This document shows positions 45,391 through 62,374 of a DNA stretch of 64,000 bases, piece after piece (positions within the stretch are counted from its first letter, which is position 1; every line of letters starts with the position of its first letter). The stretch is from an uncultured bacterium (GTDB lineage: Bacteria; Omnitrophota; Gorgyraeia; Zapsychrales; Aceulaceae). A model generated the notes under the pieces. The model did not search any database and had not been told where the DNA came from. It worked only from the letters and a program-made list of their open reading frames with translations. The translations under genes and the position numbers were made by a program. The stretch spans positions 129,749 through 193,748 of the forward strand of contig CALGLP010000006.1 of NCBI GenBank assembly GCA_937930175.1, given 5' to 3'.

Positions 45391-46913
45391 TTATTGATTC
45401 GTTGTTGTTCAGTCAGGAAAAGGGCTTTGTTGATTTCTTTTCTTTTGGCTTCTGAGATGCTTTGCTCGCGAGTTGTCATGCTAGCAGTAAGAGTTTTGGG
45501 CGTTATGTTATTTTGATCATCAATGATTTTAGGGGTAATGAAGATCACAAGTTCACGCTCTTGATGCGCTTTTACTGTGTAGCGAAAAGCTCCTCCAATC
45601 AAAGGAATGTCGCCTAAGAGCGGGACCTTTGTAACGGTATTCGCGTTTGTATTTTTTTTAAGGCCTCCTAAAAAGATTGTTTCATTGTCTTTAACGCGGA
45701 GAATAGTTTTACTCGAGCGTTCTTCAGGGTCTTTGTAGTTTTCGCCGGATCGAGGATCTTTAATTGAACCGATCCGTGCCTCAATCACCTTGGGCACGAT
45801 CGCCATAGTGATTTCTCCTGTCTCGATATTGATTTGGGGAGTGACCGTTAAAAAGATACCTGTTTCTATGCGCTCTGCTTCAACTGTTGAATCTGTAACG
45901 CCGCTTCCGCCCCCCGTTGTTGTTGAGACTGTTCCAATGGCTTCGTTGCTTGATATTTTGATTTCAGCGCTTTGATTATTCAGGGTTAAAATTTTAGGAT
46001 TTGCAAGATTCTTTGTATCGACTTGATTCTTTAAGAATTGCAGCATAACGGTAAGGCCTGAGGCATCAATGGTTCCTGCGGTATATTCAGGATCGAGTTC
46101 AAAGCCTTTAGATAAAATCTTATTTTGATCCCAAGGGTACAGAACAGAACGCTTAGCCCCTGAAAAGCTAAGAGCTGTGCCATATTGGACCCCAAGTTGG
46201 TCAGCGGTAGTTTTAGAAATATCAAGCATTTCAACTTGAATAAGAATTTGAGGTGTAGGGGCATCGAGTTGCGCGATTGTCTTTTCAATAATAGGAAATT
46301 GGCTTGGGATATCCGTGACAATCAAGCTGTTGGTGCGAGGGTCTTCAATCACCTTGCCATTATCAGGCGTCAAAACGCTTTCGAGAACAGCAATCATTCC
46401 ACCTCCTGTGTTGCTATCACCTATTGTGCTTGTCGATTCTGTTTTTGTAGAAGCACTATTGCTGCTTTCGCTTCCAAGGGTTGTCAAGAGTTTTGATGTA
46501 GAAACAGTTGCGTTCTTAAGGGTGTAAACGCGCGTGATGACTTCGACGGTAGGCTTTGTTACTTTTTTTACGGTAAAGATATCGCTTCCGGGCTCGACTT
46601 CGTAGATTAAGCCATTGGCATTCAGGATACGTTCAAGGGCTTCTTCCACGGGGACATTTTCAAAAAAGAGTGTCACCTTCATGCTGGCAATATCCGTGGC
46701 TGCAATAAAATTCATTCCAGATTGCTGAGAAAAGATTTTTAGAACGTTGCGCAAGTCCGCATCTTTAAAATCCATCGAAATTTTTTTGGAGTATTCGGGA
46801 TAGACAAATTTGCTAAAACGAGATATTTCAGCAAAGGAAGAATAATGCGTGATAAGGAGAAAGCTAAAAAGGAAGAAAGTGGTTAGAGCGATAGGTGACA
46901 TCTTTTTTTTCAT
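45387..46913 (-). CDS. pilQ: type IV pilus secretin PilQ
   Basis: 508 aa. Signal peptide, N-domains, C-terminal secretin domain (…VPLLGDIPLIGGAFR…). Confidence 0.8.
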   Translation of the reverse strand: MKKKMSPIALTTFFLFSFLLITHYSSFAEISRFSKFVYPEYSKKISMDFKDADLRNVLKIFSQQSGMNFIAATDIASMKVTLFFENVPVEEALERILNANGLIYEVEPGSDIFTVKKVTKPTVEVITRVYTLKNATVSTSKLLTTLGSESSNSASTKTESTSTIGDSNTGGGMIAVLESVLTPDNGKVIEDPRTNSLIVTDIPSQFPIIEKTIAQLDAPTPQILIQVEMLDISKTTADQLGVQYGTALSFSGAKRSVLYPWDQNKILSKGFELDPEYTAGTIDASGLTVMLQFLKNQVDTKNLANPKILTLNNQSAEIKISSNEAIGTVSTTTGGGSGVTDSTVEAERIETGIFLTVTPQINIETGEITMAIVPKVIEARIGSIKDPRSGENYKDPEERSSKTILRVKDNETIFLGGLKKNTNANTVTKVPLLGDIPLIGGAFRYTVKAHQERELVIFITPKIIDDQNNITPKTLTASMTTREQSISEAKRKEINKALFLTEQQRINK

Positions 46914-48008: not shown

Positions 48009-49587
48009 TGGTTTCGTCCGTTTCAATGATGATTTCAAAGAATGTAACGGGAAAGCCTCCAAGCGTTTCTTTTTTGACTTGCGTGAGCTCAATTTTTTTA
48101 GAATATTTCTTGAAAAAAGCGTTCGAACGTAATCTTTCTAAGAATTCTTCGATGAGGCTTATTTGGCGATTGAGTTTTTCATCATAAGAGTAGCCTTGGA
48201 GATTCACGTAAACCTTGATTTCACGTCGGCCTGTCTCTTGGGGATTACCATAGCCAATATTGAGATTCGATAGCCAAGCACCATCAAGGAGCGCGTCAGA
48301 AATGTTCTTAAGATAGAGGGTCATATGACTTTCAAGGCGAAGTTTTTTGTAGTCAGTTGTCTTTGCCTCAACATCGACAATCATTTTTTCTAGGTCAGGC
48401 TTTGAGGCGTTTTGATATTTCTGAACAAATGTTTTAAATTCAGAAAACTTCTTTTCTAAAGGAAGCGCTTGTGAGCGTGTGATACCGTATAGCCCCCCTC
48501 CTAGACTTAAGCAAATCCAAGCCACGATAATTGTTGTTTTGTAGTTAGGTGTTTGTGTAAGAAAACTTTTTGTTCCTGAGTCAGAGACTTTAGAATGCTT
48601 TAGCTTTCGTGATTTTGCTAAATCGAGATTGAAGCTTGAGGGTGTCGTGTCTGTTAAGCTAATGCCAATGGCGTTGGCCATGTTGGAATGAAGTTCATTT
48701 TCATATCGAAAAAGATTGTTGAGGTTAAGCGATGTTGCTGCAATGCCGAGCTCATCGTTAATTCCTTGCGAAGTTTCCTTAGCGTTTTGATCAGTAAAAA
48801 GATAGATGTGTGTTACTTGACTGCTGGGATTCGCTGCTTTTGGTTGACGATTATAAAATTCAATGGAATTACGGATTTCGCTAGCAAGATTTGCAACGAT
48901 AGATCGAAAATCTTGCTCTGAGCCATCGCTGTTGGCTGTCAGTAGATTAAAGTTGCGGATCAGATGAGGAATTTGCTGGTTCACCACCATGATGGATCCT
49001 TGGCCCTCGATGATTTGAACAATGGCGATTGTTTGGGTGGCATTGGAAAGTTTTTTGACGTGAAGAATCCTTAAAAGACTTAAGATCGAGGGTTCAACCG
49101 ATAGGATTTCAGCGTTGGCGTCTTCAATAATTTTACAATACTGATCGAGCTTGTCTTGGCGTATGGCAAGAAAAAGGATCTGGTTTTTTTTTATATCTTT
49201 TTCCATAAAAGGGATTGCGTGAAAAGCATAAAATAGCTCATCGAGCTTAAAGGGCATGTATCGTGGGGCTTCAAAGGCAATCGCGTTTTCGGTTTCCAAA
49301 GGACTCATGAAGGGTATTGTAAAAGAGCGGAAAATAATATCGCGGACAGGAATTGAGAGTCGCATCTTAGGCTTATCTATATTTCGATCCTTGATTAGCC
49401 TTAGAATTGCTGCGGTTAAATGCACGTCTTCGGAGATAGCCATACCTTCAGCAGAAAGCGGTGGATTGAGATTGTCTGGGATTTGTCGCGGAATGGCTGC
49501 AGAGAAAATAAGTTGATCGCGCTGCATTTCTGCAACGGATAAGAATTCTGATCCCCAGAAAATACCAATTTGTTTCTTGGAGGCCAT
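48001..49587 (-). CDS. PilM-PilN fusion protein (actin-like ATPase-fold PilM domain + TM/periplasmic PilN-like C-terminus)
   Basis: About 529 aa. N-terminal ~350 aa with PilM/FtsA-like pattern, internal TM (TTIIVAWICLSLGGGLYGI), then a coiled-coil/periplasmic tail. Start at MASKKQ, coupled to the upstream small ORF. Confidence 0.6.
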   Translation of the reverse strand: MASKKQIGIFWGSEFLSVAEMQRDQLIFSAAIPRQIPDNLNPPLSAEGMAISEDVHLTAAILRLIKDRNIDKPKMRLSIPVRDIIFRSFTIPFMSPLETENAIAFEAPRYMPFKLDELFYAFHAIPFMEKDIKKNQILFLAIRQDKLDQYCKIIEDANAEILSVEPSILSLLRILHVKKLSNATQTIAIVQIIEGQGSIMVVNQQIPHLIRNFNLLTANSDGSEQDFRSIVANLASEIRNSIEFYNRQPKAANPSSQVTHIYLFTDQNAKETSQGINDELGIAATSLNLNNLFRYENELHSNMANAIGISLTDTTPSSFNLDLAKSRKLKHSKVSDSGTKSFLTQTPNYKTTIIVAWICLSLGGGLYGITRSQALPLEKKFSEFKTFVQKYQNASKPDLEKMIVDVEAKTTDYKKLRLESHMTLYLKNISDALLDGAWLSNLNIGYGNPQETGRREIKVYVNLQGYSYDEKLNRQISLIEEFLERLRSNAFFKKYSKKIELTQVKKETLGGFPVTFFEIIIETDETNE

Positions 49588-49589
49588 GA

Positions 49590-49766
49590 TTATTGCACTT
49601 TCCTTGATTGAGAGCGCAACCACTTATCTATTTCTTTGCGATCAAAACGCCAGACGCCGCCGATTTTGATCCCTGCGATCTTGCGTTGATTAAGCCAGTT
49701 GTAGATCGTCTGCTTTTTCAGCTTAAGATATGCAGCAAGCTCATCAACATCTAATAAGTGATCCAT
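49590..49766 (-). CDS. small excisionase-family HTH (HTH_17) protein, first gene of the pilus operon
   Basis: Not in the ORF track (58 aa): MDHLLDVDELAAYLKLKKQTIYNWLNQRKIAGIKIGGVWRFDRKEIDKWLRSQSRKVQ. Its TAA stop overlaps the pilMN ATG (ATAATCATGG). Same G.WRF.R..ID.W motif as the two HTH proteins at 12.4-13.2 kb. Confidence 0.6.
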   Translation of the reverse strand: MDHLLDVDELAAYLKLKKQTIYNWLNQRKIAGIKIGGVWRFDRKEIDKWLRSQSRKVQ

Positions 49767-50053
49767 CGCTTCCCTGTCTTTGGTATTTGTTTATTTTATA
49801 ATTTAGTTGCGTAGAGAGCTGTATTCTTATTTCAATATCATTAGAGCATAATAGAATTACTCTGTCAATAGAAAAGTTATATATAAATCTTTAAACTTAC
49901 TCACGTTTACTTTTAGTAATCTAAGAATCTTGAAGATTGGTTTCTTAAGGGCAACGCATTGCGATTAGTTGTTGAGCTCAGAGCCCAGTCTCTAAAAAAG
50001 TTTTAGAAAAAGAGATTAAAAAATTAAAGATAACCTTTCAAATTGTAGTTTAT

Positions 50054-52270
50054 TTGATAAGATTAAGTATGGTCATTGTAGGATTCCTTAAGAAGCATTT
50101 CTTTACTATCCTGGTTCTGTTTGCAGGGTTTATTAATCTACCGTTTTTCCTTAATAAAACTCCGATTTATCATGATACCCTTGCGCACTACATTGCGTTT
50201 TACAACACCTACAACTCTTTTTTCTTTCACGCGGAATTGCCTCGCTGGCTTCCCTATACAAGCTTTGGAGTCTCAAGCGATTTCTTCATCTTTCTGCCAA
50301 CTGATTATTTCTTTATGCTTGTTGGTAGCCTTCTAAAAATAATAAATGTTTTATTTTTATATAAGGCATCTTTCTTTGCAACCCAACTCATCTATCTTCT
50401 AGGAACCTATACTCTTGCAAGAGACATTTTTAAGAGTCGTTTTTCAATTTGGCTTGTTTGTCTATGTGCAGCAGGGAGCCTCATGCTAAGAGATCAGATT
50501 GGCTGGGGATTTTCCTATTTTTACTTGCTACCATGGATGCTTTTTTACTTTCGAAAACTGATTATTGATAAGAATCCTTTTCCTTTCTTCTTTTTATCGG
50601 TCATTTCGCTTCTTGGCTGTCTTCCTTATTTTACTGTTATCGTCTTTTTCCAATTTTTTGTTTTTTTTATTCTATTGTGGATCGTCAATCGGCGACAAAT
50701 TTTCTGCGGCTATAAAGCTCCCTGCAAATCTTCTGTTTTAATTAATATAATTAAGTGTCTTGGTCTCTTTGCTTTTGTCTTTGCATATTTTTATATTTTG
50801 TTCCATTCAAAAGATTTAATACAAATTCTTTCCGTAGGTCGAGATCCAGAATCTTTCGGAGTTTCCTTACAGACATTCTTGAGCTATGGTGGTCATATTG
50901 GTCTTAAGAAATTTATTTTTTTCATTACTCCTATTCATTTGGCAACTTCCTTTTCTGATCTGCATATTTATTTAGGATTAACACTTTGGATTTGCGTTGT
51001 TTATGGAATTTTTCGTAGCAAAGAACCACTATTCGCTGTTTTCTTTGTCCTTGCAGCGGTTGTTTTTCTTTTCTCGTTAGGGAGTTATTTTAGTGTCTTT
51101 TGTTATTATTTTATGCCAGGGATGAAGCTCTTTCGTCATATTGGCTTAACCGCAAATCTTTTGCGTTTTTATGTTCCCATCCTTGCAGGCTTCGGCTTGC
51201 AGGCCTTGCTCAATGATATCGCCAAGCAGAAAGATAATAATCAATCCTATCTTTTTCTATTTTTTGGCGTTTTTATGGTCGCCTTTAGCTTTTTAGTTGT
51301 CTGCCCTGGAGAAAGCTTGTTGTGGGCCGTTGCTTATCCCTGCTTGATCCTTGCGATCGTTTTATTCGCATTCTTTTTTGCGCAATTAAGAAAGACCAAA
51401 TCACCGCATTTGGGCGTTCTTCTTGTTTTATTTTGTGTTCTTGAATTGGTGGTTGCCCAATTCTTGATCGCAGAGCGTGTTCATAAGAATGCGCCTGCGC
51501 AGCCTAAATCGTTAAGCTATGTTTCTAGAAATCTTTATCAGTCCTCACGAAGCTCTAAGCCACCTTCAATCAGGGCAAAAGAACTTAAGGACTATCTTTC
51601 ATTTTTCCATCATCGTTGGGGTTGTGGCATCTATGCCTATTATTACGACTTTCTGCAGTGGGATCCGTGTGATTGCGACCTGCGTTTAGATTTTATGAAC
51701 AAATATGTCTATGATTTCTTAAAAATAACAGGAAATAAGCCGACTTTGCAAGGGTTTACCCTACCTGAGAGCTCCTTTGTCCGCAACGCTGTCGGATGCC
51801 AAACACCAAAGATTCAGCTTATTTCAAAAGTTATTTTTAGCAATGATCCGAAGACAACTCTCAAGGCTATAAAAACAAAGGACGCGATTGTTGTCGCCGG
51901 CGCATCTACTAAGCTTCAAAATACTTGGAAAAACCATGCGAAGTCTGAAGGATACATCGTTGTAAATGATTTTTCATCAAATCGGTTAAAGTTGACCGCT
52001 TTTGTTCCTGAAAGGCAGGGCGCATGGCTGTATTATAAGGACGGGTACCATCCGGATTGGACGGCCAAGATCAACAATCAACGATCAGTTGTTTATCAAG
52101 CAAACATCGCCTTTAAGGCCATTAAGCTCCCGTATGGGCTAAATAGTGTTGAATTGTCTTTTGATAATCGGAAAATGGCGTTATGTTTTTATGTGTTAAT
52201 TTTGGGAGGATTGTTGTTCACGGTGTTCATGCTAGTGAAAATATTTTCAGAGATCTTGTACCCTAATTAA
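50054..52270 (+). CDS. large polytopic membrane protein, GT-C-fold glycosyltransferase-like (GtrC/YfhO/TfpW-like)
   Basis: 738 aa. About 480 aa with at least 12 predicted TM helices, then a roughly 230-aa soluble C-terminal domain. Divergent from the pilus operon, convergent (10 bp) with the sugar operon. TTG start in the track; ATG at 50069 also possible. Confidence 0.45.
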   Translation: MIRLSMVIVGFLKKHFFTILVLFAGFINLPFFLNKTPIYHDTLAHYIAFYNTYNSFFFHAELPRWLPYTSFGVSSDFFIFLPTDYFFMLVGSLLKIINVLFLYKASFFATQLIYLLGTYTLARDIFKSRFSIWLVCLCAAGSLMLRDQIGWGFSYFYLLPWMLFYFRKLIIDKNPFPFFFLSVISLLGCLPYFTVIVFFQFFVFFILLWIVNRRQIFCGYKAPCKSSVLINIIKCLGLFAFVFAYFYILFHSKDLIQILSVGRDPESFGVSLQTFLSYGGHIGLKKFIFFITPIHLATSFSDLHIYLGLTLWICVVYGIFRSKEPLFAVFFVLAAVVFLFSLGSYFSVFCYYFMPGMKLFRHIGLTANLLRFYVPILAGFGLQALLNDIAKQKDNNQSYLFLFFGVFMVAFSFLVVCPGESLLWAVAYPCLILAIVLFAFFFAQLRKTKSPHLGVLLVLFCVLELVVAQFLIAERVHKNAPAQPKSLSYVSRNLYQSSRSSKPPSIRAKELKDYLSFFHHRWGCGIYAYYYDFLQWDPCDCDLRLDFMNKYVYDFLKITGNKPTLQGFTLPESSFVRNAVGCQTPKIQLISKVIFSNDPKTTLKAIKTKDAIVVAGASTKLQNTWKNHAKSEGYIVVNDFSSNRLKLTAFVPERQGAWLYYKDGYHPDWTAKINNQRSVVYQANIAFKAIKLPYGLNSVELSFDNRKMALCFYVLILGGLLFTVFMLVKIFSEILYPN

Positions 52271-52280
52271 GGGATGTTCT

Positions 52281-52979
52281 TTAGCCAAAGATTTTAACTT
52301 TTAGGATCGCCCATAAAGCAGGAATAACAGTATCTACGGCTTTTATGGTTTTTCCTTGTTGATGCGTCCTGGGTGTATAAGAAACGGCTTCTTCGGCAAT
52401 CTTGTATCCCGCCCGACAAAGTTTGCTCACCAATTCAACGGCAGCCGCGTGTCCATTAGAATTAAATCTTGTTGCCTTTAAAATTTTTGTTTTAATCAGA
52501 CTAGATCCTATCACATCTGTAAAATTTCGCCCATAGAATAAATTAATCAACGATGTTGCAATAATGGTTCCAAGCCAATATGGCCTTTCTTTAATTAATG
52601 TAAATATTGGAACATTTTTCCGGTCTAAAAGTCTTGAGCCAAAAACAACATCTAAGCTCTCGCGTTCCATTTTTTCCATCATTTTCTGGACATCTCTCAT
52701 GCTATACTCAAGGTCTGCGCCAAGTCCAGAGAAATACTCCCCTTTAGCCAATTCCATTCCTTCACGGCCCGAATACCCAACTCCCATATTTTTTGAGTGA
52801 AGAATTATCCTGAGGTCCTTGTCATTTTTTAATCCCTGGAGCAATTCTCTGGTGCCATCTGTTGAGCAATTGTCAATAATAATGATCTCTTTATCAATGT
52901 TGACGGCTTTAGCCTCCTCGATGGCTTTAAGAATCGTTGTTTTCTCATTGAAACACGCGATAACCATGGTAAGCTTCAT
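52281..52979 (-). CDS. family 2 glycosyltransferase, polyprenol-phosphate sugar synthase-like (GtrB/Dpm1 catalytic domain)
   Basis: MKLTMVIACFNEKTTI…IIIDNCSTDGT… GT-A motifs. Start moved to Met29 (ATGA overlap with the rfbH stop). Confidence 0.65.
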   Translation of the reverse strand: MKLTMVIACFNEKTTILKAIEEAKAVNIDKEIIIIDNCSTDGTRELLQGLKNDKDLRIILHSKNMGVGYSGREGMELAKGEYFSGLGADLEYSMRDVQKMMEKMERESLDVVFGSRLLDRKNVPIFTLIKERPYWLGTIIATSLINLFYGRNFTDVIGSSLIKTKILKATRFNSNGHAAAVELVSKLCRAGYKIAEEAVSYTPRTHQQGKTIKAVDTVIPALWAILKVKIFG

Positions 52980-54292
52980 TCTATCTCCTTTAGAAAATCG
53001 ATCAAAATCTTTTTTATGTACGACAGCATTCCTTGGGTAAGGCCAGGATAGACTCCTATCCAAAATAAATTATTCATGACAACATCTGTATTGTTCAAAT
53101 TTCTAGCCACCTTATATTTTATATTTTTGTAAGCAGGCTGTTTTAAAAGGTTACCGCCAAACAACATTCTTGTGGCAATCTTATGATCTTCAAAATAATT
53201 AACAATATCTGCCCTCTTAAAAGGCGCACTTTCTCTGACTAAGATAGGAAAACCAAACCAGCTCGGATCCGAATACTTCTCAGCTTCTGGGAGTACAAAA
53301 TAATTTCTATACTTCTTAAGCACTGCGTAAAGAAATTTGAAATTTCTCTTTCTAGCTTCAATAAATCTAGGCAATTTTTTTAGTTGAGCGCATCCGATGG
53401 CTGCTTGCATCTCCGTAATCTTTAAATTATAACCCACATGCGAATAAACGTATTTATGATCATATCCGTAAGGTAAGTCGCCAAACTTTTGGCTAAACCT
53501 TTTTTTGCATGTATCATCATCTCCTGGGTTACACCAGCAATCCCTTCCCCAGTCCCGAAAAGACAGTATTATTTTTCTTAATAGCGAATTGTTAGTCAAA
53601 ACAGCTCCACCCTCTCCCGTCGTTATGTGGTGCGAGGGATAGAAACTACAGGTCGAAATATCGCCAAAGGTTCCAGCATGCTTACCCTTGTACATTGATC
53701 CTAACGCGTCACAGTTGTCTTCAATAAACCATAGGTTATATTTTTTTGCTATTTTAGAAATTAACCCCAGATTCGCGGGATTACCCAACGTATGCGCGAT
53801 GAATATTGCTTTTGTCCTGTTGGTAAGCATCTTTTCTATCAGCTCAGCTTTAATATTATATGTTCCCAGTTTTATGTCTAAAAATACTGGTGTTAAGCGA
53901 TTTTGTAAGATTGGGTTGAGGGTGGTTGGAAAACCGCAGGCTGTGGTAATAACTTCATCTCCAGGCCTCAATCTTCTATCTTTTAACAAAGGAGAAGTCA
54001 GGCTAGAAACCGCCAAAAGATTAGCTGAAGAACCTGAATTTGTTAATAGACAATGCTTAACCCCTAAGAAACTAGCAAGGCCTTTTTCAAATTTATCGGC
54101 GTATCTGCCAGCCGTAAGCCAAAAATCCAGCGAAGCATCAACCAAGTGAATAAGCTCATCTTCGTTATAAACCCGGCCGGCATAAGGAATAGGACTCTTC
54201 CTTTCAAGAAATTGACTTTTTTTTCTTTCGGAGGCGCAATACGTTGCTACTTTTTCTAATATGTCGCGTCTTAATTTTATGCTTTTATTCAT
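52976..54292 (-). CDS. ddhC: CDP-6-deoxy-D-xylo-4-hexulose-3-dehydrase (E1; RfbH/DdhC family, DegT/AHBA-synthase fold)
   Basis: 438 aa. Length and N-terminal pattern (…LVDASLDFWLTAGRYADKFEKGLASFLGVKHCLLTNSGSSANLLAVSSLTSPLL…) match RfbH-type PMP-dependent 3-dehydrases, not ~380-aa aminotransferases. Confidence 0.7.
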   Translation of the reverse strand: MNKSIKLRRDILEKVATYCASERKKSQFLERKSPIPYAGRVYNEDELIHLVDASLDFWLTAGRYADKFEKGLASFLGVKHCLLTNSGSSANLLAVSSLTSPLLKDRRLRPGDEVITTACGFPTTLNPILQNRLTPVFLDIKLGTYNIKAELIEKMLTNRTKAIFIAHTLGNPANLGLISKIAKKYNLWFIEDNCDALGSMYKGKHAGTFGDISTCSFYPSHHITTGEGGAVLTNNSLLRKIILSFRDWGRDCWCNPGDDDTCKKRFSQKFGDLPYGYDHKYVYSHVGYNLKITEMQAAIGCAQLKKLPRFIEARKRNFKFLYAVLKKYRNYFVLPEAEKYSDPSWFGFPILVRESAPFKRADIVNYFEDHKIATRMLFGGNLLKQPAYKNIKYKVARNLNNTDVVMNNLFWIGVYPGLTQGMLSYIKKILIDFLKEIE

Positions 54293-54332
54293 TAATTCTC
54301 GCTATTTAGATCGCAGACATGCAGCCCACACC

Positions 54333-54779
54333 TTAAGCCTTAAATATGTTTTTGTTCCCAAAGGAAAGATGTCTATGTCCAAGATAGTTGAAAGGAGTGG
54401 CTATAACGATACACAAACATTGTGCCAGGATCGGATACAAGCCTAAAAGACTGACCAATAGATACATGAGTACAAAACCAAGCACAGCGCTCCCACTGTA
54501 AACCAAATAACAGCGAAAATATTCTTTGAGATAATTCCCCTTTGTTCTAAAAACAACAAACTTATAGCCAAGATATGCGTTGGTAATAGCTAAAATATTA
54601 GCCGGAATCAATAATAGCAGATAGTTAACACGGGCATGCAGCAACTTGTATAAAATAGCATAAGCTCCTATCCCAAACAATGTGTTCCAGCCGCCAATGA
54701 GCATATAGCGCATCATCCGGCGAATCTCTTTATCGTGTTTTTTATATTTCTCCACTAGCTGAACACCTATTGCGTGCAT
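54333..54779 (-). CDS. GtrA-family membrane protein (polyprenol-phosphate-sugar flippase-like)
   Basis: About 130 aa, 4 TM helices, YMLIGGWNTLFGIGAYAIL…ATPFNYLGHRHLSF GtrA signature. Confidence 0.65.
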   Translation of the reverse strand: MHAIGVQLVEKYKKHDKEIRRMMRYMLIGGWNTLFGIGAYAILYKLLHARVNYLLLLIPANILAITNAYLGYKFVVFRTKGNYLKEYFRCYLVYSGSAVLGFVLMYLLVSLLGLYPILAQCLCIVIATPFNYLGHRHLSFGNKNIFKA

Positions 54780-54848: not shown

Positions 54849-55982
54849 CTAAATTATTTCTAATCCGAAATCTCGCAATATCGCAACCTTTGTATTACTA
54901 AAACTCTGCTGTATTATCCCAACCACCTCATCGGAATAACTAGCTGCCATAACAACAACCGCATCAACCGGATCTGATCTAAGAGTGTTAGGTGTTACGA
55001 TCGGTAAATGCGTAGCCGGAGTGTATTTGCCTTGCTTGAAAGGCGCTGAATCGATGACGTATCTGATTTTGTCTGCAATTCTTGTCAAGGCAATGATGGC
55101 TAAGGCCTGATGGCCAGCGCCCCAGATGGCAACACTTTTTTCCTTGAAATGGCTAAGAAACTCATTGATTTCAGATTCAATTTTGATTTGATAATCATAA
55201 AAGTGCATTATGTCGAGCTTTCCTCTTTTTTTTACAACAACGGAAATAACATAATCATCCCGTGTCTGGCTGAAGTCAATGATGTCAAATCCATTAATAG
55301 ACAAAGTTGTCTGTAGCGTTTCTTTGGTAAAGTACAGCAGATGATCGCTAATGAATTCTGAGAAAAGGTTTTTTCGTAATATCATGTCAAAATTCGGCAC
55401 TTCAATTAAGCCTACGGCATCTTCAGTCAAGTTATTATAAATTCCTTTGAGCGCATGATTTGGCGCAGGTATATGCTCCAAAAACATCAATAAAAGAAAG
55501 GCGTCAAAAGGACCCTGATCCAGTTTCTTAGAATTGCTATCGAGATATTCTTTTGATACATTCAGCCCATCTTTCACACACTGCTTAACTGAAAGTTCTG
55601 AATACTCCAATCCGTAAGCCTTGACGTCAAGCGGCTGCAGCAAGGAAAGAAATTCCCCTTTTCCGCATCCGATCTCGATAATCTTTTTCCCCTTTAATGA
55701 ATATTTCTCAATAAAGTTGGCGAATTGTTTGGTTTTAAAATCTTTGATAATTTCCGAAACAGCTGCGGCCCGAATAACCTCTCGGTAATACGAAACAGGA
55801 TCATCACTTAGCTGCACTAAGCCACATCCTGAACATTGACAAACGGTTAAATTGACGCCTGTTTCGTTTTTCAAAGAATTTGCGTCAGGGAAATGTTGAG
55901 CAGCTTTCGGCATGTTTTTGTAGACGAGCAGTGGTTTATTAAAAAATTCTCGACCACAAACTCTGCAAATCGAAATTGACAT
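54849..55982 (-). CDS. NDP-hexose C-methyltransferase (TylCIII-like; zinc-ribbon + SAM MTase + C-methyltransferase C-terminal domain)
   Basis: N-terminal Cys4 zinc ribbon (CRVCG…CQCSGCG), SAM motif IIEIGCGKGEF, and C-terminal Rossmann-like domain (VAIWGAGHQA…YVIDSAPFKQGKYTPATHLPIV…) as in sugar 3-C-methyltransferases. Confidence 0.65.
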   Translation of the reverse strand: MSISICRVCGREFFNKPLLVYKNMPKAAQHFPDANSLKNETGVNLTVCQCSGCGLVQLSDDPVSYYREVIRAAAVSEIIKDFKTKQFANFIEKYSLKGKKIIEIGCGKGEFLSLLQPLDVKAYGLEYSELSVKQCVKDGLNVSKEYLDSNSKKLDQGPFDAFLLLMFLEHIPAPNHALKGIYNNLTEDAVGLIEVPNFDMILRKNLFSEFISDHLLYFTKETLQTTLSINGFDIIDFSQTRDDYVISVVVKKRGKLDIMHFYDYQIKIESEINEFLSHFKEKSVAIWGAGHQALAIIALTRIADKIRYVIDSAPFKQGKYTPATHLPIVTPNTLRSDPVDAVVVMAASYSDEVVGIIQQSFSNTKVAILRDFGLEII

Positions 55983-56001: not shown

Positions 56002-57021
56002 TTATCGTAATCTTTCAATTGGAAATCCGTCAATATTGTCTCTGGTGTAATAATCGTTACGATAAATATTACATCTTAAGCATGAATAATTCTCGTGTTT
56101 TCTATCCTTTAGTTGCAATTTTTGGAATTCAAGCCATTGCCTTGAATTCCATATCTGTTGCAAGCTCATATCATCAACGTTTCCCAGATTTGTGCCACCA
56201 ATAAAATCTACACAGCAGGGAGAAACATCACCGTTACTTCGAACCGCCATTGTCGTAAAAGCCATAGGGCATGCAACTCTTTGAGTACTATGTTTCTTTG
56301 AATCATCAAGGGCTTTAATTATGTCGTCTTTGTAATAATCTTTTATAAAATCTACTCCATCTACCTTGATCCAGTTATGTGGTTTTTCAATGTAGACTTC
56401 ATCGGCTACATCGCTATACATTTCCATGAAGGCATCGTTATCTGAGTTATACGCATCAAGCATCTTTGCGGCAACAAAAGGGCTTTTGCTATTAGCACAT
56501 TTTTTTATAGCCTGCAAGGTTTTTAAATTTTCATGTATTTTGTGTATATCGAACTTTGTGCCGGTAATTTCCTCATGCTTATCTTGATAAGGCGAATATA
56601 TCGAGACCCTAATATAATCGAGTTGATACTCAACAAGTTTTTCTGCTACTTTTTCAGTAAGCAGTGAGGCATTTGTTGTCGTTTCAATTCTTTCAGCAAT
56701 GTTTGCCTCCCTTGCCATTTCCAGCATCTCACAGAAATCCGGATTAAGTAAAGGTTCCCCGTACAAGCTGAGCTTTAATACTTTAAGTTTTTTCTCATTC
56801 CAACTTTTTAATTGTTCAATCACCTTTACATAGGTATCAAACGGCATATGTTGACGATTTTCTGTAAAATAATTCTCTTCCTTCAGGCTCTGGAAACACT
56901 GGACGCATTTAAAATTGCATAAACTCGATGGCTCAATCAGCACCGTAAACGGTTTAGATAGCGGTAATACATTTCTGAGATTTTGCCGTTTAGTTGATTT
57001 TAGCTCAGTATATTTGATCAT
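56002..57021 (-). CDS. radical SAM / SPASM-domain enzyme
   Basis: CxxxCxxC (CNFKCVQC) cluster, LYGEPLL and TTN motifs, C-terminal Cys-rich SPASM region (CPMAF…SPCCVDF…CLRC). Confidence 0.75.
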   Translation of the reverse strand: MIKYTELKSTKRQNLRNVLPLSKPFTVLIEPSSLCNFKCVQCFQSLKEENYFTENRQHMPFDTYVKVIEQLKSWNEKKLKVLKLSLYGEPLLNPDFCEMLEMAREANIAERIETTTNASLLTEKVAEKLVEYQLDYIRVSIYSPYQDKHEEITGTKFDIHKIHENLKTLQAIKKCANSKSPFVAAKMLDAYNSDNDAFMEMYSDVADEVYIEKPHNWIKVDGVDFIKDYYKDDIIKALDDSKKHSTQRVACPMAFTTMAVRSNGDVSPCCVDFIGGTNLGNVDDMSLQQIWNSRQWLEFQKLQLKDRKHENYSCLRCNIYRNDYYTRDNIDGFPIERLR

Positions 57022-58067
57022 CTAATAAAATCTTCTTTGTCAAATGCTTCAGTCCAATGAATAGGTAGCGGTTTGCGATAAGTTTTGGACATATATTTAT
57101 TAATAAAATTACGATCTTCTCCAGAAAGGCACAAGCTGCTGTATTCTTGAAAACATTTAATGCTCTGTCCGCGTTTGATGATGTTGGCCAGGCTTTCCTT
57201 AAAAATACTACCGATGGATATAGGGATATATACGCACGGTGTTACATCACCATACTGAGTGATGTGCAATGTCGAATCAACACAACCACAACCTTTGTTC
57301 ATGCCGTAAGACGGGAAAGTGTCGCGATGTAATACAGGATACTGATCATGGGCCTTGCGGAGAAATTCTGCGTCTTCCTTATCGATTAACACTTCATGTT
57401 TCCCTTCCCATGCTCCAGTGGCCCGAGCAATTAACACGTCAATCGTAAAGTCATTCTTCTGAGCGAATTCGGCCATCTGTATTAAGCGATCCGTCTGACA
57501 GTTTTGATGGGTAACAACCGTTTGGACCACCACGCTCAAGCCCGCCTTTTTGGCGTTGAACATGGCATCCATCGCTTTTTGATAGGCTCCGCTGCTGTTG
57601 CGATTTTCGTTATGCCGTTTTTCGTCAAAATCATCCAAACTAATTTTGAGCTTATCCATGCCCATTGCCTTTAAGTGTCTAGCGGCTTTTTTGCTCAAAA
57701 AATGACCATTGGTGCTCATCGTCATGTGGAACTTGTGTGGTTGCAGAGCCAGGATTACCCCATCTAGGTCTTCAAAGATTAATGGTTCTCCGCCAGAGAT
57801 ACAAAACTGACAAAGGCCGAGAGAATGGGCCTCATCGCTAAGTTTTTTCAGGTCAGGTGGGGTTAGTTTTCGTCCTTTTTTTGCAAAACGAGCGGCTGTG
57901 CAGTGCTGACACTTCAGATTGCAAGCATAGCTATAAGCAATATCGATGATCGGTGTGGCAATCCCCTTTTGGTGACGCTCGATAATTTTTATTATCTTGT
58001 CGTAGACCGCAGGTTTTTCCTGTCGCAATTTTTCTCGCTTAGCGTCTTCAATCTCTTTTTCTTGCAC
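57018..58067 (-). CDS. radical SAM / SPASM-domain enzyme (paralog of the upstream gene)
   Basis: CNLKCQHC radical-SAM cluster, SGGEPLI and STNG motifs, C-terminal CGCVD…TPCVY…CLSG SPASM cysteines. 4-bp overlap with the preceding gene. Confidence 0.75.
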   Translation of the reverse strand: MQEKEIEDAKREKLRQEKPAVYDKIIKIIERHQKGIATPIIDIAYSYACNLKCQHCTAARFAKKGRKLTPPDLKKLSDEAHSLGLCQFCISGGEPLIFEDLDGVILALQPHKFHMTMSTNGHFLSKKAARHLKAMGMDKLKISLDDFDEKRHNENRNSSGAYQKAMDAMFNAKKAGLSVVVQTVVTHQNCQTDRLIQMAEFAQKNDFTIDVLIARATGAWEGKHEVLIDKEDAEFLRKAHDQYPVLHRDTFPSYGMNKGCGCVDSTLHITQYGDVTPCVYIPISIGSIFKESLANIIKRGQSIKCFQEYSSLCLSGEDRNFINKYMSKTYRKPLPIHWTEAFDKEDFIR

Positions 58068-58088: not shown

Positions 58089-59210
58089 TTAAAGAACTGC
58101 ATAACATACAGTTTCATATTCCAGTTTTGTATGATGCCTTAAATAAATTTTATATTCCGGGACCAATTCTTTTATATAAAGCGGGATTTCCCATAAATGT
58201 TTAAAATCATGATAAACGCATATAGCTAGCTTAGGTTTTTGAGTCTTAATAATGCTTTTAGATCCTTTCAGCGCTTGCAGCTCTGCTCCTTCAATATCCA
58301 TTTTAATAAACGTAACTTTTTCATTTTTCAACATCTCATCAAGTGGAACCACATGGCCGCGGGCTTCACCTTCACCAATAGTGCTTTGGGACTGGCTAAT
58401 ACTATAAGCGATGTCGCTTTCACGATCCCATAATCCTAGTTCAAAGATTCTGATCCGGTCGCAATTAGGCATATTTTTTACATTATCGTTCAATAAGCGA
58501 AAGTTGATTGAATTAACCTCAAAGGAGAAAATATTCTCAAATTTTCCGTTTACACGCTTAATAAAATCTTTAACCGTATCCCCATTAAAAGCTCCAACGT
58601 CAATAAAGCTTTCATGATCGGATAGCTTGATTATATTTGCAGGAAAGTACTGATTTTTCTCACAAACATCTGCCATGACGCCAATATCTTCTCCATTGCT
58701 CAAAACTCGATTAACAATAGCATGAAAAACTTTTTTAGATTGTTCATCTGATAAAATCTTGCAAGCTTGGCATAGTTTATCTCCAATTTCTAAGCAATTC
58801 TGATCTAGAAGGAAATTAGAGGTAATAAGATCGTACTTATAGATTTGATTAACCAATGGAAATCCACTTTCGATCAAGTTCTTAAAAACTGGTTCAAAAT
58901 CGCCAATCGTAATAAAGACAGCGCTCCTATTCTTTATTTTTACTAATTCTTGAAAAGAAAGGCATTTTGTACCACAAAAATACTTCCCCCATTTGACGCT
59001 GTCGCTATCGCAGCAATAATCGACTTTTCGCCCAACATATGCATTCCAAGTGTCAACAATACTATTGAAAATTGCGCCGCAACCATAAAACACGATATAA
59101 TCGTAATGTTTTACTAAGTCTTTAATTTCCTGCCGATAGTTTCTTTTTCTTTTTAACAATTCAGCAAAATGGTCGCGTAGTTGTGAATGATCATGCAGCA
59201 TTGTCATCAT
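58089..59210 (-). CDS. FkbM-family methyltransferase with N-terminal extension domain
   Basis: C-terminal FIDVGAFNGDT…FIKMDIEGAE FkbM signature. About 150-aa N-terminal domain of unknown function. Confidence 0.7.
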   Translation of the reverse strand: MMTMLHDHSQLRDHFAELLKRKRNYRQEIKDLVKHYDYIVFYGCGAIFNSIVDTWNAYVGRKVDYCCDSDSVKWGKYFCGTKCLSFQELVKIKNRSAVFITIGDFEPVFKNLIESGFPLVNQIYKYDLITSNFLLDQNCLEIGDKLCQACKILSDEQSKKVFHAIVNRVLSNGEDIGVMADVCEKNQYFPANIIKLSDHESFIDVGAFNGDTVKDFIKRVNGKFENIFSFEVNSINFRLLNDNVKNMPNCDRIRIFELGLWDRESDIAYSISQSQSTIGEGEARGHVVPLDEMLKNEKVTFIKMDIEGAELQALKGSKSIIKTQKPKLAICVYHDFKHLWEIPLYIKELVPEYKIYLRHHTKLEYETVCYAVL

Positions 59211-59673
59211 TCTCCTGATTTTTCACAATCCATTCCAGTAACTCCCAGACACATCCTTCGCCCCCGCGAGCGGAGAGCTTGATTGCTGCAAGCTCTCTGA
59301 CTTCCGAGCTGGCATTTGACGGACAAGCCGAAAATTTCACCGCCTTCATAACATCGACATCGTGCTTAGAATCGCCCAAATAGCAGATAGCATCAGCGCT
59401 CAATCCGGTTTTATCAATGATTTTCTGTAACGCTAGAATTTTATTTTTACACCCGTTATAGAAAAAATCCGGTTTGAAACGTTCTTTGAAAACTAATGTG
59501 ATAGGAGTGTTTTCACCGGTTATTAAGCCAACCAAGAGCTTTTGCCTTTTCATTTCAAATATTGCGTCGATATCTTTAAAGTTAATGGTTTTATATTCAT
59601 TCCCATGGGAGTCTATTGTAGCTTTGCCATCAGTTAATACCCCATCAATATCAAGCAAGATGAGCTTTATCAT
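59191..59673 (-). CDS. HAD-IIIA phosphatase, KdsC-like (3-deoxy-ulosonate phosphate phosphatase family)
   Basis: 160 aa. LILLDIDGVLTDGK motif I and GDSKHD(V)D motif, as in KdsC / KDN-9-P phosphatases. Confidence 0.7.
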   Translation of the reverse strand: MIKLILLDIDGVLTDGKATIDSHGNEYKTINFKDIDAIFEMKRQKLLVGLITGENTPITLVFKERFKPDFFYNGCKNKILALQKIIDKTGLSADAICYLGDSKHDVDVMKAVKFSACPSNASSEVRELAAIKLSARGGEGCVWELLEWIVKNQENDDNAA

Positions 59674-61504: not shown

Positions 61505-62374
61505 TTATTTATTCACCCGACGTAGTTTCTTTAAGACCGGGATTTCTCTCTCGTAAACGCGTTTAATCCCATCCCCCAGAGAAGACTCTATCAAGCGAAT
61601 ATCGCGCACAAGGATCTCAAATCCGTGAGCGCCTAAAGATGCGGCTTGATCAGACCCCCACATGGAGCGATCAAGGGTAATGTGCCGCTCAATCATGCAA
61701 GCCCCTAGTGATGTGGCGGCCACAGACGTGGCGATGCCCGTTTCATGCCCGGAATACCCAATAGGGACTTTATAGCGATCTTTCAAAGTTTTAATGACCC
61801 GTAGATTTAACTCATCATAATTTGCTGGGTATGTGCTTGTCGTGTGTAAAATGATTAGATTTTCTTTGCCTAAAATCTCCACCGCATGATCAATTTGTTC
61901 AATTATGCTCATGCCCGTAGACAATATGATGGGTTTTTTCTTTGTTCGGTGGTAGCGAAGCAGGTCGTCATCGGTCAGAGTCGCCGAGGCGATCTTGTAG
62001 CAAGGCACGTCAAATTGGTCGATAAAATCAATGGATTTTTCATCCCAGCAGGAGGCAAACCAAGGTATTTTTTTTTCTTGGCAATAGCGATCGATCTCCT
62101 GATAGTCTTCCAGTTCCAGCTCCAAACCATATTTTAAATCACCATTTGTAGGACCGAAATAGTTTTCTCGGGGGAGACTTAACTCTTCAGCCGTATACAC
62201 TTGGTCGATGGTACGTTTTTGAAATTTAACAGCATTGCATCCGGCTTTGATTGCGGCATCGATGAGGTTCTTAGCTATCGCAACATCACCATTGTGGTTA
62301 ATGCCTATTTCGGCGACAATGTAACAGGGATGATTGTCGCCTACGAGGGTATTGCCTATCTTTACCTCTGCCAT
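61505..62374 (-). CDS. NeuB-family PEP-dependent sugar aldolase (N-acetylneuraminate/KDN-9-P synthase-like, no SAF domain)
   Basis: 289 aa. IVAEIGINHNGD…KFQ… TIM-barrel NeuB motifs. Lacks the C-terminal antifreeze-like domain. Confidence 0.7.
   Translation of the reverse strand: MAEVKIGNTLVGDNHPCYIVAEIGINHNGDVAIAKNLIDAAIKAGCNAVKFQKRTIDQVYTAEELSLPRENYFGPTNGDLKYGLELELEDYQEIDRYCQEKKIPWFASCWDEKSIDFIDQFDVPCYKIASATLTDDDLLRYHRTKKKPIILSTGMSIIEQIDHAVEILGKENLIILHTTSTYPANYDELNLRVIKTLKDRYKVPIGYSGHETGIATSVAATSLGACMIERHITLDRSMWGSDQAASLGAHGFEILVRDIRLIESSLGDGIKRVYEREIPVLKKLRRVNK

Follow-up and report, generated by a model that had tools for sequence, protein, structure and literature searches.

A probable glycan island with a putative three-component extracytoplasmic glycosylation system beside a pilus operon in an Omnitrophota genome

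In mycobacteria, galactosamine is transferred onto arabinogalactan by PpgS (Rv3631), Rv3632 and Rv3779, which combine a short GT2 glycosyltransferase without a membrane segment, a small GtrA-like membrane protein and a GT-C. The CsbB/GtcA/YfhO systems of B. subtilis, S. aureus and L. monocytogenes, which place GlcNAc on lipoteichoic or wall teichoic acid, consist of a GT2 making a C55-P-sugar, a GtrA-family flippase and a YfhO-family GT-C (PMC8035078). Three-component logic is also found in diderms, where the GtrA/GtrB/GtrC O-antigen glucosylation systems (Shigella, Salmonella phages) and the GT136 pentofuranose systems are mobile, strain-variable modules that add single periplasmic sugars (PMC11127046). 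Proteins can be acceptors as well. For example, streptococcal GtrB/PgtC2 and PgfS/PgfM1, which pair a GT2 making an Und-P-sugar with a YfhO-family GT-C, O-glycosylate Ser/Thr-rich disordered regions of extracytoplasmic proteins (PMC12041528). Similarly, the GT-C TfpW arabinosylates group IV pilins of Pseudomonas aeruginosa and is described as modifying Ser/Thr of the pilin with sugar drawn from a polyprenol-P-linked donor; the sugar cluster encodes a GtrA-like protein (bioRxiv 10.1101/2020.04.19.049825).

The 64,000-nucleotide stretch of DNA from an uncultured Omnitrophota bacterium analysed here (the window) carries genes of the same three families as CsbB/GtcA/YfhO, at one end of what is probably a self-contained glycan module of ~15.6 kb. 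The relevant features are as follows.

39573–40217, minus strand: last pilin-like gene of the pilus operon, with a Thr/Pro-rich tail (detected by TRF); speculative candidate acceptor
49767–49954, minus strand: conserved promoter region of the HTH_17-pilus operon, outside the island (alignment A5)
49955–50053, no strand: island-specific end of the spacer, including any GT-C promoter, without counterpart in relatives (alignment A5)
50054–52270, plus strand: predicted YfhO-family GT-C glycosyltransferase, 738 aa from a TTG at 50054
52281–52979, minus strand: GT2, putative polyprenol-phosphate sugar synthase (Dpm1/PpgS-like), 232 aa; PF00535, 92 bits
52976–54292, minus strand: RfbH/E1-type CDP-6-deoxy-4-hexulose 3-dehydrase; NF011936 (RfbH), 709.6 bits against a cutoff of 423
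54333–54779, minus strand: GtrA-family small membrane protein; PF04138, 66.2 bits against a cutoff of 26.1, model positions 1–117 of 117
54849–55982, minus strand: NDP-hexose C-methyltransferase-type enzyme; Pfam Methyltransf_14 (C-methyltransferase C-terminal domain), Methyltransf_13 (zinc-binding domain) and Methyltransf_23
56002–57021 and 57018–58067, minus strand: two radical SAM/SPASM enzymes; Pfam Radical_SAM and SPASM in both
58089–59210, minus strand: FkbM-family methyltransferase; PF05050, TIGR01444
59191–59673, minus strand: KdsC/KDN-9-phosphate-phosphatase-like HAD hydrolase; NF058599 (120 bits) and TIGR01670 (103.5 bits), both below cutoff
59670–61463, minus strand: thiamine-diphosphate (ThDP) enzyme of acetolactate-synthase type; Pfam TPP_enzyme_N, _M and _C
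61505–62374, minus strand: NeuB-family PEP-condensing enzyme; PF03102, 264 bits, below the NeuB and PseI equivalog cutoffs
62405–63460, minus strand: SDR epimerase/dehydratase-family enzyme; PF01370, PF16363
63453–64000, minus strand: 3′ part of a CDP-glucose 4,6-dehydratase-like gene; TIGR02622, 210 bits, below the cutoff of 278

The GT-C, GT2 and GtrA genes were confirmed at the coordinates and in the orientations given by the sequence-only reading. The convergence that it described also holds, since the GT-C and GT2 stop codons lie 10 nt apart. On the identical MAG contig, NCBI annotates the GT-C from an ATG at 50069 instead, which shortens it to 733 aa.

Comparison among Omnitrophota places the insertion point of the island between an ExbBD/small-gene cluster and the HTH_17-pilus operon, both of which are conserved. 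In five related Omnitrophota this pilus operon and its upstream neighbours are likewise present, but neither sugar nor GT-C genes separate them; the flanking genes are 172–197 bp apart there, and their orthologues are 88–93% (HTH_17) and 35–62% (small genes) identical. Relative to these five genomes the block that includes GT-C, GT2 and GtrA is one insertion, and the comparison indicates that all three were inherited with the sugar operon as a single unit. The outer end of the island falls at about window-equivalent position 65343, beyond the 64-kb window, and the remainder of the window consists of housekeeping genes. Because the junction into which the island was inserted is intact in the five relatives, its adjacency to the pilus operon appears, as far as the comparative data show, to be a consequence of where it landed.

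The pilus operon is headed by the HTH_17 gene (49590–49766, 58 aa) and contains a PilM fusion, a secretin, a PilB-like ATPase, a PilC-like platform protein and five pilin-like genes. The 287-bp spacer between the HTH_17 and GT-C genes (49767–50053) had been taken for a shared promoter region. The spacer and the divergent arrangement are real, but an alignment of the spacer with five relatives (A5) assigns ~190 bp of it to the conserved pilus promoter and leaves ~100–115 bp that are specific to this genome. The conserved part includes an invariant TTGACA (49863–49868), a −10-like element and a GTAAGT-N4-GTAAGT repeat, and was left untouched by the island. Consensus promoter and terminator scans returned sites no more frequently than expected by chance.

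No other protein found is more than 35% identical to the GT-C, and against PF09586 (YfhO) the GT-C scores 23 bits, below the gathering threshold of 28.5, with only residues 634–703 matched. Within its own subfamily, 50 of 61 members match PF09586 (best E 5.6e-11), and a profile search with the subfamily recovers proteins that NCBI names ‘YfhO family protein’. When the subfamily profile (A2) was compared by hhalign with 25 PF09586 proteins, the probability was 100% (E 5.7e-46) across 677 aligned columns (query 20–728). Judged by these profiles, the protein is a diverged YfhO subfamily, homologous to the YfhO family over its full length. Its predicted layout comprises TM1, a first outward loop with an invariant His40-Asp41, about 13 TM helices, a beta-rich extracytoplasmic domain (~480–705) and a final TM helix (706–735); the multi-pass membrane core and the extracytoplasmic loop after TM1 are those of a GT-C fold. 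Asp41 is invariant across the 61 subfamily sequences and lines up with the Asp that is invariant in YfhO proper, and Lys13 and Lys14 ahead of TM1 fit the inferred topology, with the N terminus inside and the loop outside. The homology and the loop aspartate agree with the original description of the 738-aa protein as GT-C-like. Its family match is to YfhO, not to a transporter or polymerase. Two public assemblies of the same population have a stop codon at residue 713 of this gene, with loss of the last TM helix and nothing else, downstream of the conserved domains; the gene is perhaps not under strong selection in all strains.

The GT2 is the sole cytoplasmic glycosyltransferase of the island. 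Its ATG start and the stop of the RfbH-like gene ahead of it overlap in the sequence ATGA, with AAGGAG just upstream, an arrangement by which the two genes are predicted to be translationally coupled. No hydrophobic segment was detected in its 232 residues, in agreement with the soluble enzyme first proposed, and it therefore belongs to the Dpm1/PpgS type rather than to the membrane-anchored GtrB/CsbB type with its two C-terminal TM helices. The best NCBIfam matches are AglJ and PpgS, with all scores far below equivalog cutoffs; PpgS, a joint-best match, aligns over positions 4–208 of 226 (E 3.3e-15) at 56 bits against a cutoff of 370. Among solved structures the best relative is the P. furiosus Dol-P-Man synthase 5mlz (E 2.3e-8), followed by, among others, GtrB 5ekp. 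In alignment with the Dol-P-Man synthase the ADL(E/Q) and GSR motifs are kept and the first Asp of DAD is Gly. The GT2 thus resembles polyprenol-phosphate sugar synthases, and we regard it as a putative member of that group. Two genes upstream of it, beyond the RfbH-like gene, lies the GtrA gene, whose product is a clear PF04138 member, as the earlier reading had it, and a putative polyprenol-P-sugar flippase or assembly partner.

The 13-gene sugar-biosynthesis operon that travels with the trio begins just beyond the window with a glucose-1-phosphate cytidylyltransferase (TIGR02623, 415 bits against a cutoff of 300), and the CDP-glucose 4,6-dehydratase-like gene runs past the window edge at 64000. 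Both the cytidylyltransferase and RfbH exceed their own equivalog cutoffs. The RfbH-like enzyme has a DegT fold, yet is not an aminotransferase: in its translation His replaces the Schiff-base Lys (SFYPSHHITTGEGG) and a C-x-C-x7-C motif is present (DCWCNPGDDDTC). We take the Lys-to-His change at the cofactor site and this Fe-S cysteine motif to be the signatures of E1. The best acetolactate-synthase matches of the ThDP enzyme in NCBIfam are all below cutoff, and presumably this enzyme is a candidate YerE-like adder of a two-carbon branch. The NeuB-like and KdsC-like genes have no fitting place in the CDP-hexose pathway proposed here.

Homology suggests how each enzymatic step might proceed. 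The glucose-1-phosphate cytidylyltransferase, 4,6-dehydratase, RfbH/E1 3-dehydrase, ThDP enzyme, C- and other methyltransferases and radical-SAM enzymes would make a CDP-activated 3,6-dideoxy hexose, probably branched and methylated, in the cytoplasm. The GT2 would then move this hexose onto undecaprenyl (polyprenyl) phosphate; we know of no polyprenol-phosphate GT2 that uses a CDP-sugar. The GtrA-family protein would flip the lipid-linked monosaccharide or help to present it, and the YfhO-family GT-C would pass the sugar to an extracytoplasmic acceptor by means of the invariant Asp41 of the first outward loop. Genes for an initiating phosphoglycosyltransferase, Wzx, Wzy or WaaL are absent from the island, which would therefore be expected to add single residues to a pre-existing acceptor rather than to build a polymer.

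Set beside the described systems, the island shares with YfhO full-length GT-C homology and the same invariant loop-1 Asp, and it differs from the CsbB/GtcA/YfhO systems in several respects: the host is a diderm Omnitrophota without teichoic acids, the GT-C represents a diverged subfamily and scores under the Pfam cutoff, the two C-terminal TM helices of CsbB and GtrB are missing from the GT2, and the donor is probably a CDP-derived branched dideoxyhexose rather than UDP-GlcNAc. In its GT2, short and without a membrane segment, the island resembles the PpgS system, although GT-C family, sugar and acceptor all differ from those of PpgS/Rv3632/Rv3779. The GT-Cs of the Gtr* and GT136 systems are not of the YfhO family, GtrB is membrane-anchored, and the 13-gene biosynthesis operon carried along with the trio sets the island apart from them. 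Likewise, TfpW is described as a protein with TPR motifs that weakly resembles Emb enzymes rather than YfhO; its donor is supplied by the DprE1/E2 pathway, and the island lacks that pathway (no DprE1/E2-type domains among its Pfam matches).

Surveys of related loci bear on the acceptor. Among 81 related pilus loci, of which 38 extend at least 5 kb upstream of pilM, none contained a YfhO-like gene, GtrA or RfbH, and PilB, PilC, secretin or PilM was found in none of 42 loci with related YfhO-like genes. Across these loci and the five relatives with intact junctions, the GT-C/pilus linkage is unique to this genome, and a glycosyltransferase gene both adjacent to and co-inherited with pilus genes was not seen. 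The linkage is thus conserved in neither direction, and the proposal that physical linkage marks the pilin as acceptor is not borne out. The usual setting of related YfhO-like genes is instead a sugar/polysaccharide cluster with several GT2s, epimerases, heptose genes and methyltransferases. About 12 of the 42 loci have GT2 genes. In five of these (L015, L019, L020, L031, L039) the GT2 has GtrB/CsbB architecture with a C-terminal hydrophobic block, and in two of the five its gene is directly upstream of the GT-C gene. In fact L015, from another Omnitrophota, brings together RfbH, a two-subunit ThDP enzyme, a C-methyltransferase, a GT2 and a YfhO-like GT-C without pilus genes. GtrA lies beside none of the 42 GT-C genes, so the complete trio does not form a conserved cluster.

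An envelope glycan (LPS core, O-antigen, capsule or another polysaccharide) is a serious candidate, at somewhat under an even chance; the pilus operon would then be unrelated and the system would act as GtrABC, ArnT and YfhO do, the last on teichoic acids. This reading accords with the polysaccharide clusters in which related YfhO-like genes mostly lie, never with pilus genes, and with the large beta-rich extracytoplasmic domain of the GT-C, as such domains bind glycan acceptors in other GT-Cs and most characterised three-component systems decorate glycans (PMC8035078; PMC11127046). The island also resembles a mobile, strain-variable module, as serotype-converting loci do. Against a glycan acceptor, neither the island nor the 64-kb window holds acceptor-glycan genes (Wzx, Wzy, WaaL, an initiating transferase or other glycosyltransferases), and YfhO enzymes act on proteins too (PMC12041528).

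Ser/Thr-rich disordered segments of envelope proteins, taken together, might equally be the acceptor, again at a little less than even chance, and about half of that chance falls to the Thr/Pro-tailed pilin; an acceptor of some other kind is improbable. General O-glycosylation of such segments in many extracytoplasmic proteins, with the pilin tail and the Ser/Thr-rich PilQ linker among possible targets, would follow streptococcal GtrB/PgtC2, in which the YfhO-family PgtC2 modifies many membrane-associated proteins (PMC12041528). The window's secretin linker does have 17 Ser/Thr in 30 residues, but secretins of relatives without the island at this locus have poly-Ser linkers that are richer still (24–27 of 30), so Ser/Thr linkers do not track the island, and this general form is doubtful.

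Dedicated pilin O-glycosylation, in which the GT-C would move the sugar from polyprenol phosphate to Thr in the tail of the last pilin or to other pilus proteins, is similarly unlikely. The Thr/Pro-repeat pilin noted earlier is real: TRF finds an 81-bp tandem repeat (2.5 copies, 94% matches) that encodes a 27-aa unit, and the 75-residue tail contains 22 Thr and 19 Pro. Among the orthologues seen, such a tail occurs only in the island-bearing organism; in close relatives the tail is rich in Gly/Asp/Pro or in Ser, and in distant ones it is missing. This is a single co-occurrence (n=1), without statistical weight. By analogy, the best precedent is that of GtrB/PgtC2 and PgfS/PgfM1, in which Ser/Thr-rich disordered regions are the O-glycosylation targets of PgtC2 and PgfM1, and the genes of the adhesin substrates adjoin pgf (PMC12041528); TfpW, assisted by a GtrA-like protein, offers a second (bioRxiv 10.1101/2020.04.19.049825). 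The divergent orientation of the GT-C gene and the pilus operon also speaks for this reading. Here, however, linkage of island and pilus is not conserved, and sugar and cell envelope differ too. [quoted passage not shown] The adjacency is explained by insertion at a junction intact elsewhere, the pilus promoter is untouched, and the island's share of the spacer is only about 100 bp.

That the trio is not one unit, the GT2 being a Leloir transferase for a cytoplasmic or Und-PP-linked acceptor and the GT-C using another lipid-linked donor or decaying, is very improbable: the GT2 does miss every equivalog cutoff and has no Asp at the first position of DAD, GtrA is missing from related GT-C loci and the GT-C has its nonsense variant, but that variant costs only the last helix, the GT2 is the island's only glycosyltransferase, operon-coupled with GtrA two genes upstream, the GT-C arrived with the operon as one block, and the pairing of GT2 and YfhO-like genes recurs in unrelated genomes.

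A three-component (multi-component transmembrane) glycosylation system thus remains plausible for the YfhO-family GT-C, polyprenol-P-synthase-like GT2 and GtrA of this inserted block, and this half of the sequence-only interpretation stands; its step from linkage to a pilin acceptor does not. As a whole, the locus is probably best explained as an inserted glycan island that would provide this organism with three-part extracytoplasmic sugar attachment.

The three genes that the sequence-only reading had grouped as a glycosylation system were all recovered, in the arrangement it described, beside the type IV pilus operon. They are listed here with the other features discussed below.

39573-40217, minus strand: last pilin-like gene of the pilus operon (the tailed pilin)
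45387-46913: PilQ-type secretin
49590-49766: 58-aa HTH_17 gene, head of the pilus operon
49767-49954, minus strand: about 190 bp upstream of the HTH_17 gene
50054-52270, strand opposite to GtrA and GT2: 738-aa polytopic membrane protein (GT-C)
52281-52979: 232-aa GT2 (PF00535, 92 bits)
54333-54779: GtrA-family protein (PF04138, 66 bits)
56002-58067: two adjacent, overlapping radical SAM/SPASM genes
59191-59673: KDN-9-phosphate-phosphatase-like (KdsC-like) HAD
61505-62374: NeuB-family PEP-condensing enzyme

The start codon of the GT2 gene and the stop of the RfbH-like gene ahead of it overlap as ATGA, behind an AAGGAG, and the GT2 and GT-C genes converge with 10 nt between their stops. On its other side the GT-C gene, which NCBI calls at 733 aa from an ATG at 50069, is separated by a divergent 287-bp spacer from the HTH_17 gene. 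The window is identical to contig DAIMJH010000012.1 (NCBI MAG GCA_036722365.1) across the 12.5 kb compared and differs from ENA contig ERZ724084 NODE_180 at two bases, 52192 and 40515, the latter in the spacer ahead of the tailed pilin gene. Position 52192 is a T in the window and the NCBI MAG (TAT, Tyr713 of the GT-C) and an A in ERZ724084 and Logan SRR3330212, where the resulting TAA stop, a nonsense polymorphism at strain level, leaves a 707-aa product without the final transmembrane helix.

The 738-aa protein belongs to the GT-Cs of the YfhO family. Searched as a single sequence, it scored 23 bits against the Pfam YfhO cutoff of 28.5, over the C-terminal domain only, and a word-indexed search returned four homologues. 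Exhaustive HMMER searching from a profile of these four gathered 36,038 cluster representatives at E <= 1e-3, of which 955 reached E <= 1e-30, and the subfamily profile also recovered proteins named 'YfhO family protein' by NCBI. PF09586 matched 50 of the 61 aligned subfamily members, and profile-profile comparison of the subfamily with 25 NCBI-named YfhO proteins gave a probability of 100% (E 5.7e-46, 677 columns), with Asp41, Trp65 and Gly72, all invariant in the subfamily, aligned to invariant residues of YfhO proper. A structure search found no solved structure for YfhO. AlphaFold2 gave a poor model from five sequences (pLDDT 60.5) and a confident one from the 61-sequence alignment (pLDDT 90.6, pTM 0.92), in which TM1 is followed by an outward loop starting at His40-Asp41, about 13 helices, a beta-rich extracytoplasmic domain at roughly 480-705 and a terminal helix. 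The family matches and this predicted layout therefore place the protein among the GT-Cs, as had been proposed, and not in a transporter or polymerase family. Its diverged subfamily comes mostly from MAGs of diderms (Omnitrophota, Nitrospirota, Planctomycetota, Chloroflexota and others). Related genes occur as tandem paralogues at two loci (L004 and L027) and in several copies in one Omnitrophota bin (L033 and L046), which points to diversified acceptor or donor specificity.

The second member of the trio, the GT2, has no hydrophobic segment in its 232 residues. Its best solved relative is the Pyrococcus Dol-P-Man synthase (5mlz, E 2.3e-8), with Synechocystis GtrB also matching, and among NCBIfam models it comes closest to AglJ and to PpgS, the mycobacterial polyprenyl-phospho-GalNAc synthase, all scores lying far below equivalog cutoffs. 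The ADL(E/Q) and GSR motifs align with those of Dol-P-Man synthase, whereas the DAD metal/donor motif reads GAD, its first Asp replaced by Gly, a change that may be connected with a donor that is a CDP-sugar and not a GDP- or UDP-sugar. These relatives and motifs, together with the fact that the GT2 is the only glycosyltransferase of its operon, make a polyprenol-phosphate sugar synthase the likely assignment.

The other genes of the GT2 operon suggest what sugar the enzyme would load. Read past the window end on an NCBI MAG contig (L049), the 13-gene operon encodes, in order, a glucose-1-phosphate cytidylyltransferase (TIGR02623, 415 bits, cutoff 300), a 4,6-dehydratase-like SDR, a second SDR, the NeuB-like protein, a ThDP enzyme, the KdsC-like HAD, FkbM, the two radical SAM/SPASM proteins, a C-methyltransferase, GtrA, RfbH and GT2. 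RfbH, at 709.6 bits, clears its cutoff of 423, and its translation carries a Lys-to-His change and a C-x-C-x7-C motif, which we take to be the marks of E1 3-dehydrases. Given the scores of the cytidylyltransferase and RfbH and the E1-type motifs of the latter, the donor is probably a CDP-activated 3,6-dideoxyhexose, further methylated and branched, the branch presumably being added by the ThDP enzyme by analogy with YerE. We know of no polyprenol-phosphate route for a CDP-derived branched dideoxyhexose. Two genes inside this apparent CDP-hexose pathway do not fit it: that of the NeuB-like protein, which falls below the NeuB and PseI cutoffs and is missing the C-terminal portion of the NeuB model (329 residues), and that of the KdsC-like HAD; neither NeuA nor NeuC was found alongside them. 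The models nearest to the radical SAM/SPASM pair are cofactor and peptide maturases, all far below cutoff, so that these two enzymes may perform new sugar chemistry.

The sequence-only reading had taken the physical linkage to the pilus genes as a pointer to a pilin acceptor, and comparison across genomes did not bear this out. The pilus operon comprises a PilM fusion, the secretin, a PilB-like ATPase, a PilC-like platform protein and five pilin-like genes, and every PilM homologue bearing a source name is from Candidatus Omnitrophota. We compared its upstream junction in five distinct Omnitrophota relatives (PilM identity 56, 52, 50, 50 and 38%). Where contigs are long enough the order is UvrA, a 620-aa gene, a TPR protein, ExbB, ExbD, small genes, 172-197 bp, HTH_17, then PilM and the remaining pilus operon, and in none of the five is there a sugar or GT-C gene between the small genes and HTH_17. 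In the window organism the flanks are orthologous to those of the relatives (HTH_17 88-93% identical, small genes 35-62%), and precisely at the junction that is intact in the relatives lie about 15.6 kb that comprise the GT-C gene and the 13-gene operon. Aligning the spacers showed no counterpart in the relatives of the 100-115 bp adjoining the GT-C gene. Relative to these five genomes the sugar operon and GT-C gene are one inserted block; in co-inheritance the GT-C is tied to the sugar operon, not to the pilus. A horizontal origin argued from GC content was dropped, the island (39.3%) not being distinctive against the far flank (40.5%). Scanned for consensus promoters and terminators, 49500-52500 yielded no more sites than expected from shuffling, and the scan was therefore not counted as evidence.

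The pilus side of the divergent spacer has features of its own. The roughly 190 bp upstream of HTH_17 are conserved in the five relatives (L051, L053, L054, L056 and L057) despite PilM identities of only 38-56%, and HTH_17 itself remains 88-93% identical in relatives whose PilM is just 38-50% identical. The conserved elements are an invariant TTGACA (49863-49868), a -10-like TCTAAT 17 nt downstream and, upstream, a GTAAGT-N4-GTAAGT direct repeat that is likely an operator, perhaps for the HTH_17 protein itself.

Searches beyond this junction gave the same answer. PilB, PilC, secretin or PilM was found within 10 kb of none of 42 genome loci carrying related YfhO-like genes, where a GT2 occurs at about 12 loci and an RfbH/DegT-like gene at about 10. 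Conversely, among 81 loci with pilus operons of this kind, 38 of which extend 5 kb or more upstream of pilM, none had a YfhO-like gene (by either of two HMMs), GtrA or RfbH. The GT2s adjoining five of the related GT-Cs (L015, L019, L020, L031 and L039) are built like GtrB/CsbB, with a C-terminal hydrophobic block after the GT-A domain, and in the first two the GT2 lies directly upstream of the GT-C. At the L015 locus (1-22133; Omnitrophota MAG JACPSR010000142.1), for example, a GtrB-type GT2 immediately precedes a YfhO-like GT-C of 794 aa; the locus also encodes two nucleotidyltransferases, RfbH (E 2e-150), SDRs, an alpha/beta ThDP enzyme resembling pyruvate dehydrogenase E1, a GHMP kinase and C-methyltransferases, and it has no pilus genes. 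By this gene content it would be a parallel module passing a branched dideoxyhexose to a lipid carrier and on to a GT-C, which suggests that lipid-carrier delivery of branched dideoxy sugars recurs in Omnitrophota. A strict GtrA filter proved unsafe, the window GtrA itself having just two hydrophobic segments at a threshold of 1.6. Repeated with a looser filter, for which the window GtrA served as positive control, the search found GtrA beside none of the related GT-C loci, and the full trio in a single block is therefore particular to this locus.

Taken together, the family assignments support the idea of three-component periplasmic glycosylation, and we consider it probable that the trio works as such a lipid-carrier-mediated system; the pilin acceptor, unsupported by conservation, becomes a minority possibility. 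No initiating transferase, Wzx, Wzy or WaaL is encoded in the island, and the ten largest genes sampled from the left half of the window (1-34000) are housekeeping (FtsH, a CtpA-like protease, GatA/GatB, KsgA, PdxA, SurA, Mfd, SecDF, TrpE), with no glycan genes among them; therefore, the system must decorate something made elsewhere. SurA fits a diderm envelope.

To our knowledge no acceptor of the diverged YfhO subfamily has ever been identified in diderms. A glycan and a protein acceptor seem to us equally credible, each falling somewhat short of an even chance. The first has precedents in YfhO, which acts on teichoic acids (PMC8035078), and in Gtr and GT136, which act on O-antigens (PMC11127046), and the usual genomic neighbours of the GT-C subfamily are polysaccharide-type clusters. 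The second has precedents in the YfhO-family proteins PgtC2 and PgfM1, which O-glycosylate Ser/Thr-rich disordered regions, the pgf genes adjoining those of their adhesin substrates (PMC12041528), and in TfpW, which acts on pilins (bioRxiv 10.1101/2020.04.19.049825); pilins specifically take half of the weight we give to proteins. Some other acceptor is rather unlikely.

The Thr/Pro-repeat pilin that had been put forward as acceptor is real: its gene holds an 81-bp tandem repeat of 2.5 copies (94% matches), encoding a tail in which 22 of the 75 residues are Thr and 19 are Pro. Its orthologues combine a conserved pilin core with a hypervariable low-complexity tail, which in two relatives (L053, 20743-21602, and L060) is Gly/Asp/Pro-rich, with GTDPGTGGV/PIEEPDPG repeats and a helical end, and in a third (L054, 20189-20809) is poly-Ser and then Gly/Pro-rich; orthologues in distant relatives have no tail. 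Among the orthologues seen, the Thr/Pro version occurs only in the island-bearing organism, a single co-occurrence. We dropped the Ala at -1 of the prepilin site as an aberration, since it recurs in several relatives and is common in this pilin family. The secretin linkers are also rich in Ser/Thr, with 17 of 30 residues in the window against 24-27 of 30, almost poly-Ser, among close relatives (L051-L054), and are possible sites of periplasmic O-glycosylation or flexible spacers; since the relatives that lack the island at this locus have the richer linkers, Ser/Thr-richness does not track the island.

The most specific form of the pilin reading joins several claims. In an Omnitrophota bacterium that is ultra-small and may depend on a host, the YfhO-family GT-C of a recently acquired island would O-glycosylate a type IV pilin-like protein on its mucin-like Thr/Pro tail; the sugar, with undecaprenyl phosphate as its carrier, would be a branched and methylated 3,6-dideoxyhexose of CDP origin that has not been described before. 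As a whole we regard this reading as improbable. If true, it would supply the first case of YfhO-type glycosylation of protein in a diderm, of a pilin modified by this route and, as far as known, of a polyprenol-phosphate GT2 working with a CDP-sugar. Strain variation in the island and hypervariability of the tail would then jointly diversify a pilus surface that contacts host or prey. Type 4a pili have been proposed to mediate host attachment in Omnitrophota (PMC10066038), and a pilin-tail acceptor would bear on partner recognition by these pili.

Since periplasmic glycosylation by three components is familiar and YfhO proteins form a very large superfamily, another instance is in itself unsurprising. 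This one is a compact, complete example in a candidate phylum without a cultured model, in which nucleotide-sugar synthesis, lipid loading, flipping and the GT-C travel as a single insertion and thus offer a ready-made cassette for heterologous reconstitution. What sets this system of known type apart is its likely unusual donor sugar, its form as a complete mobile cassette and its membership of a large YfhO subfamily of diderms.
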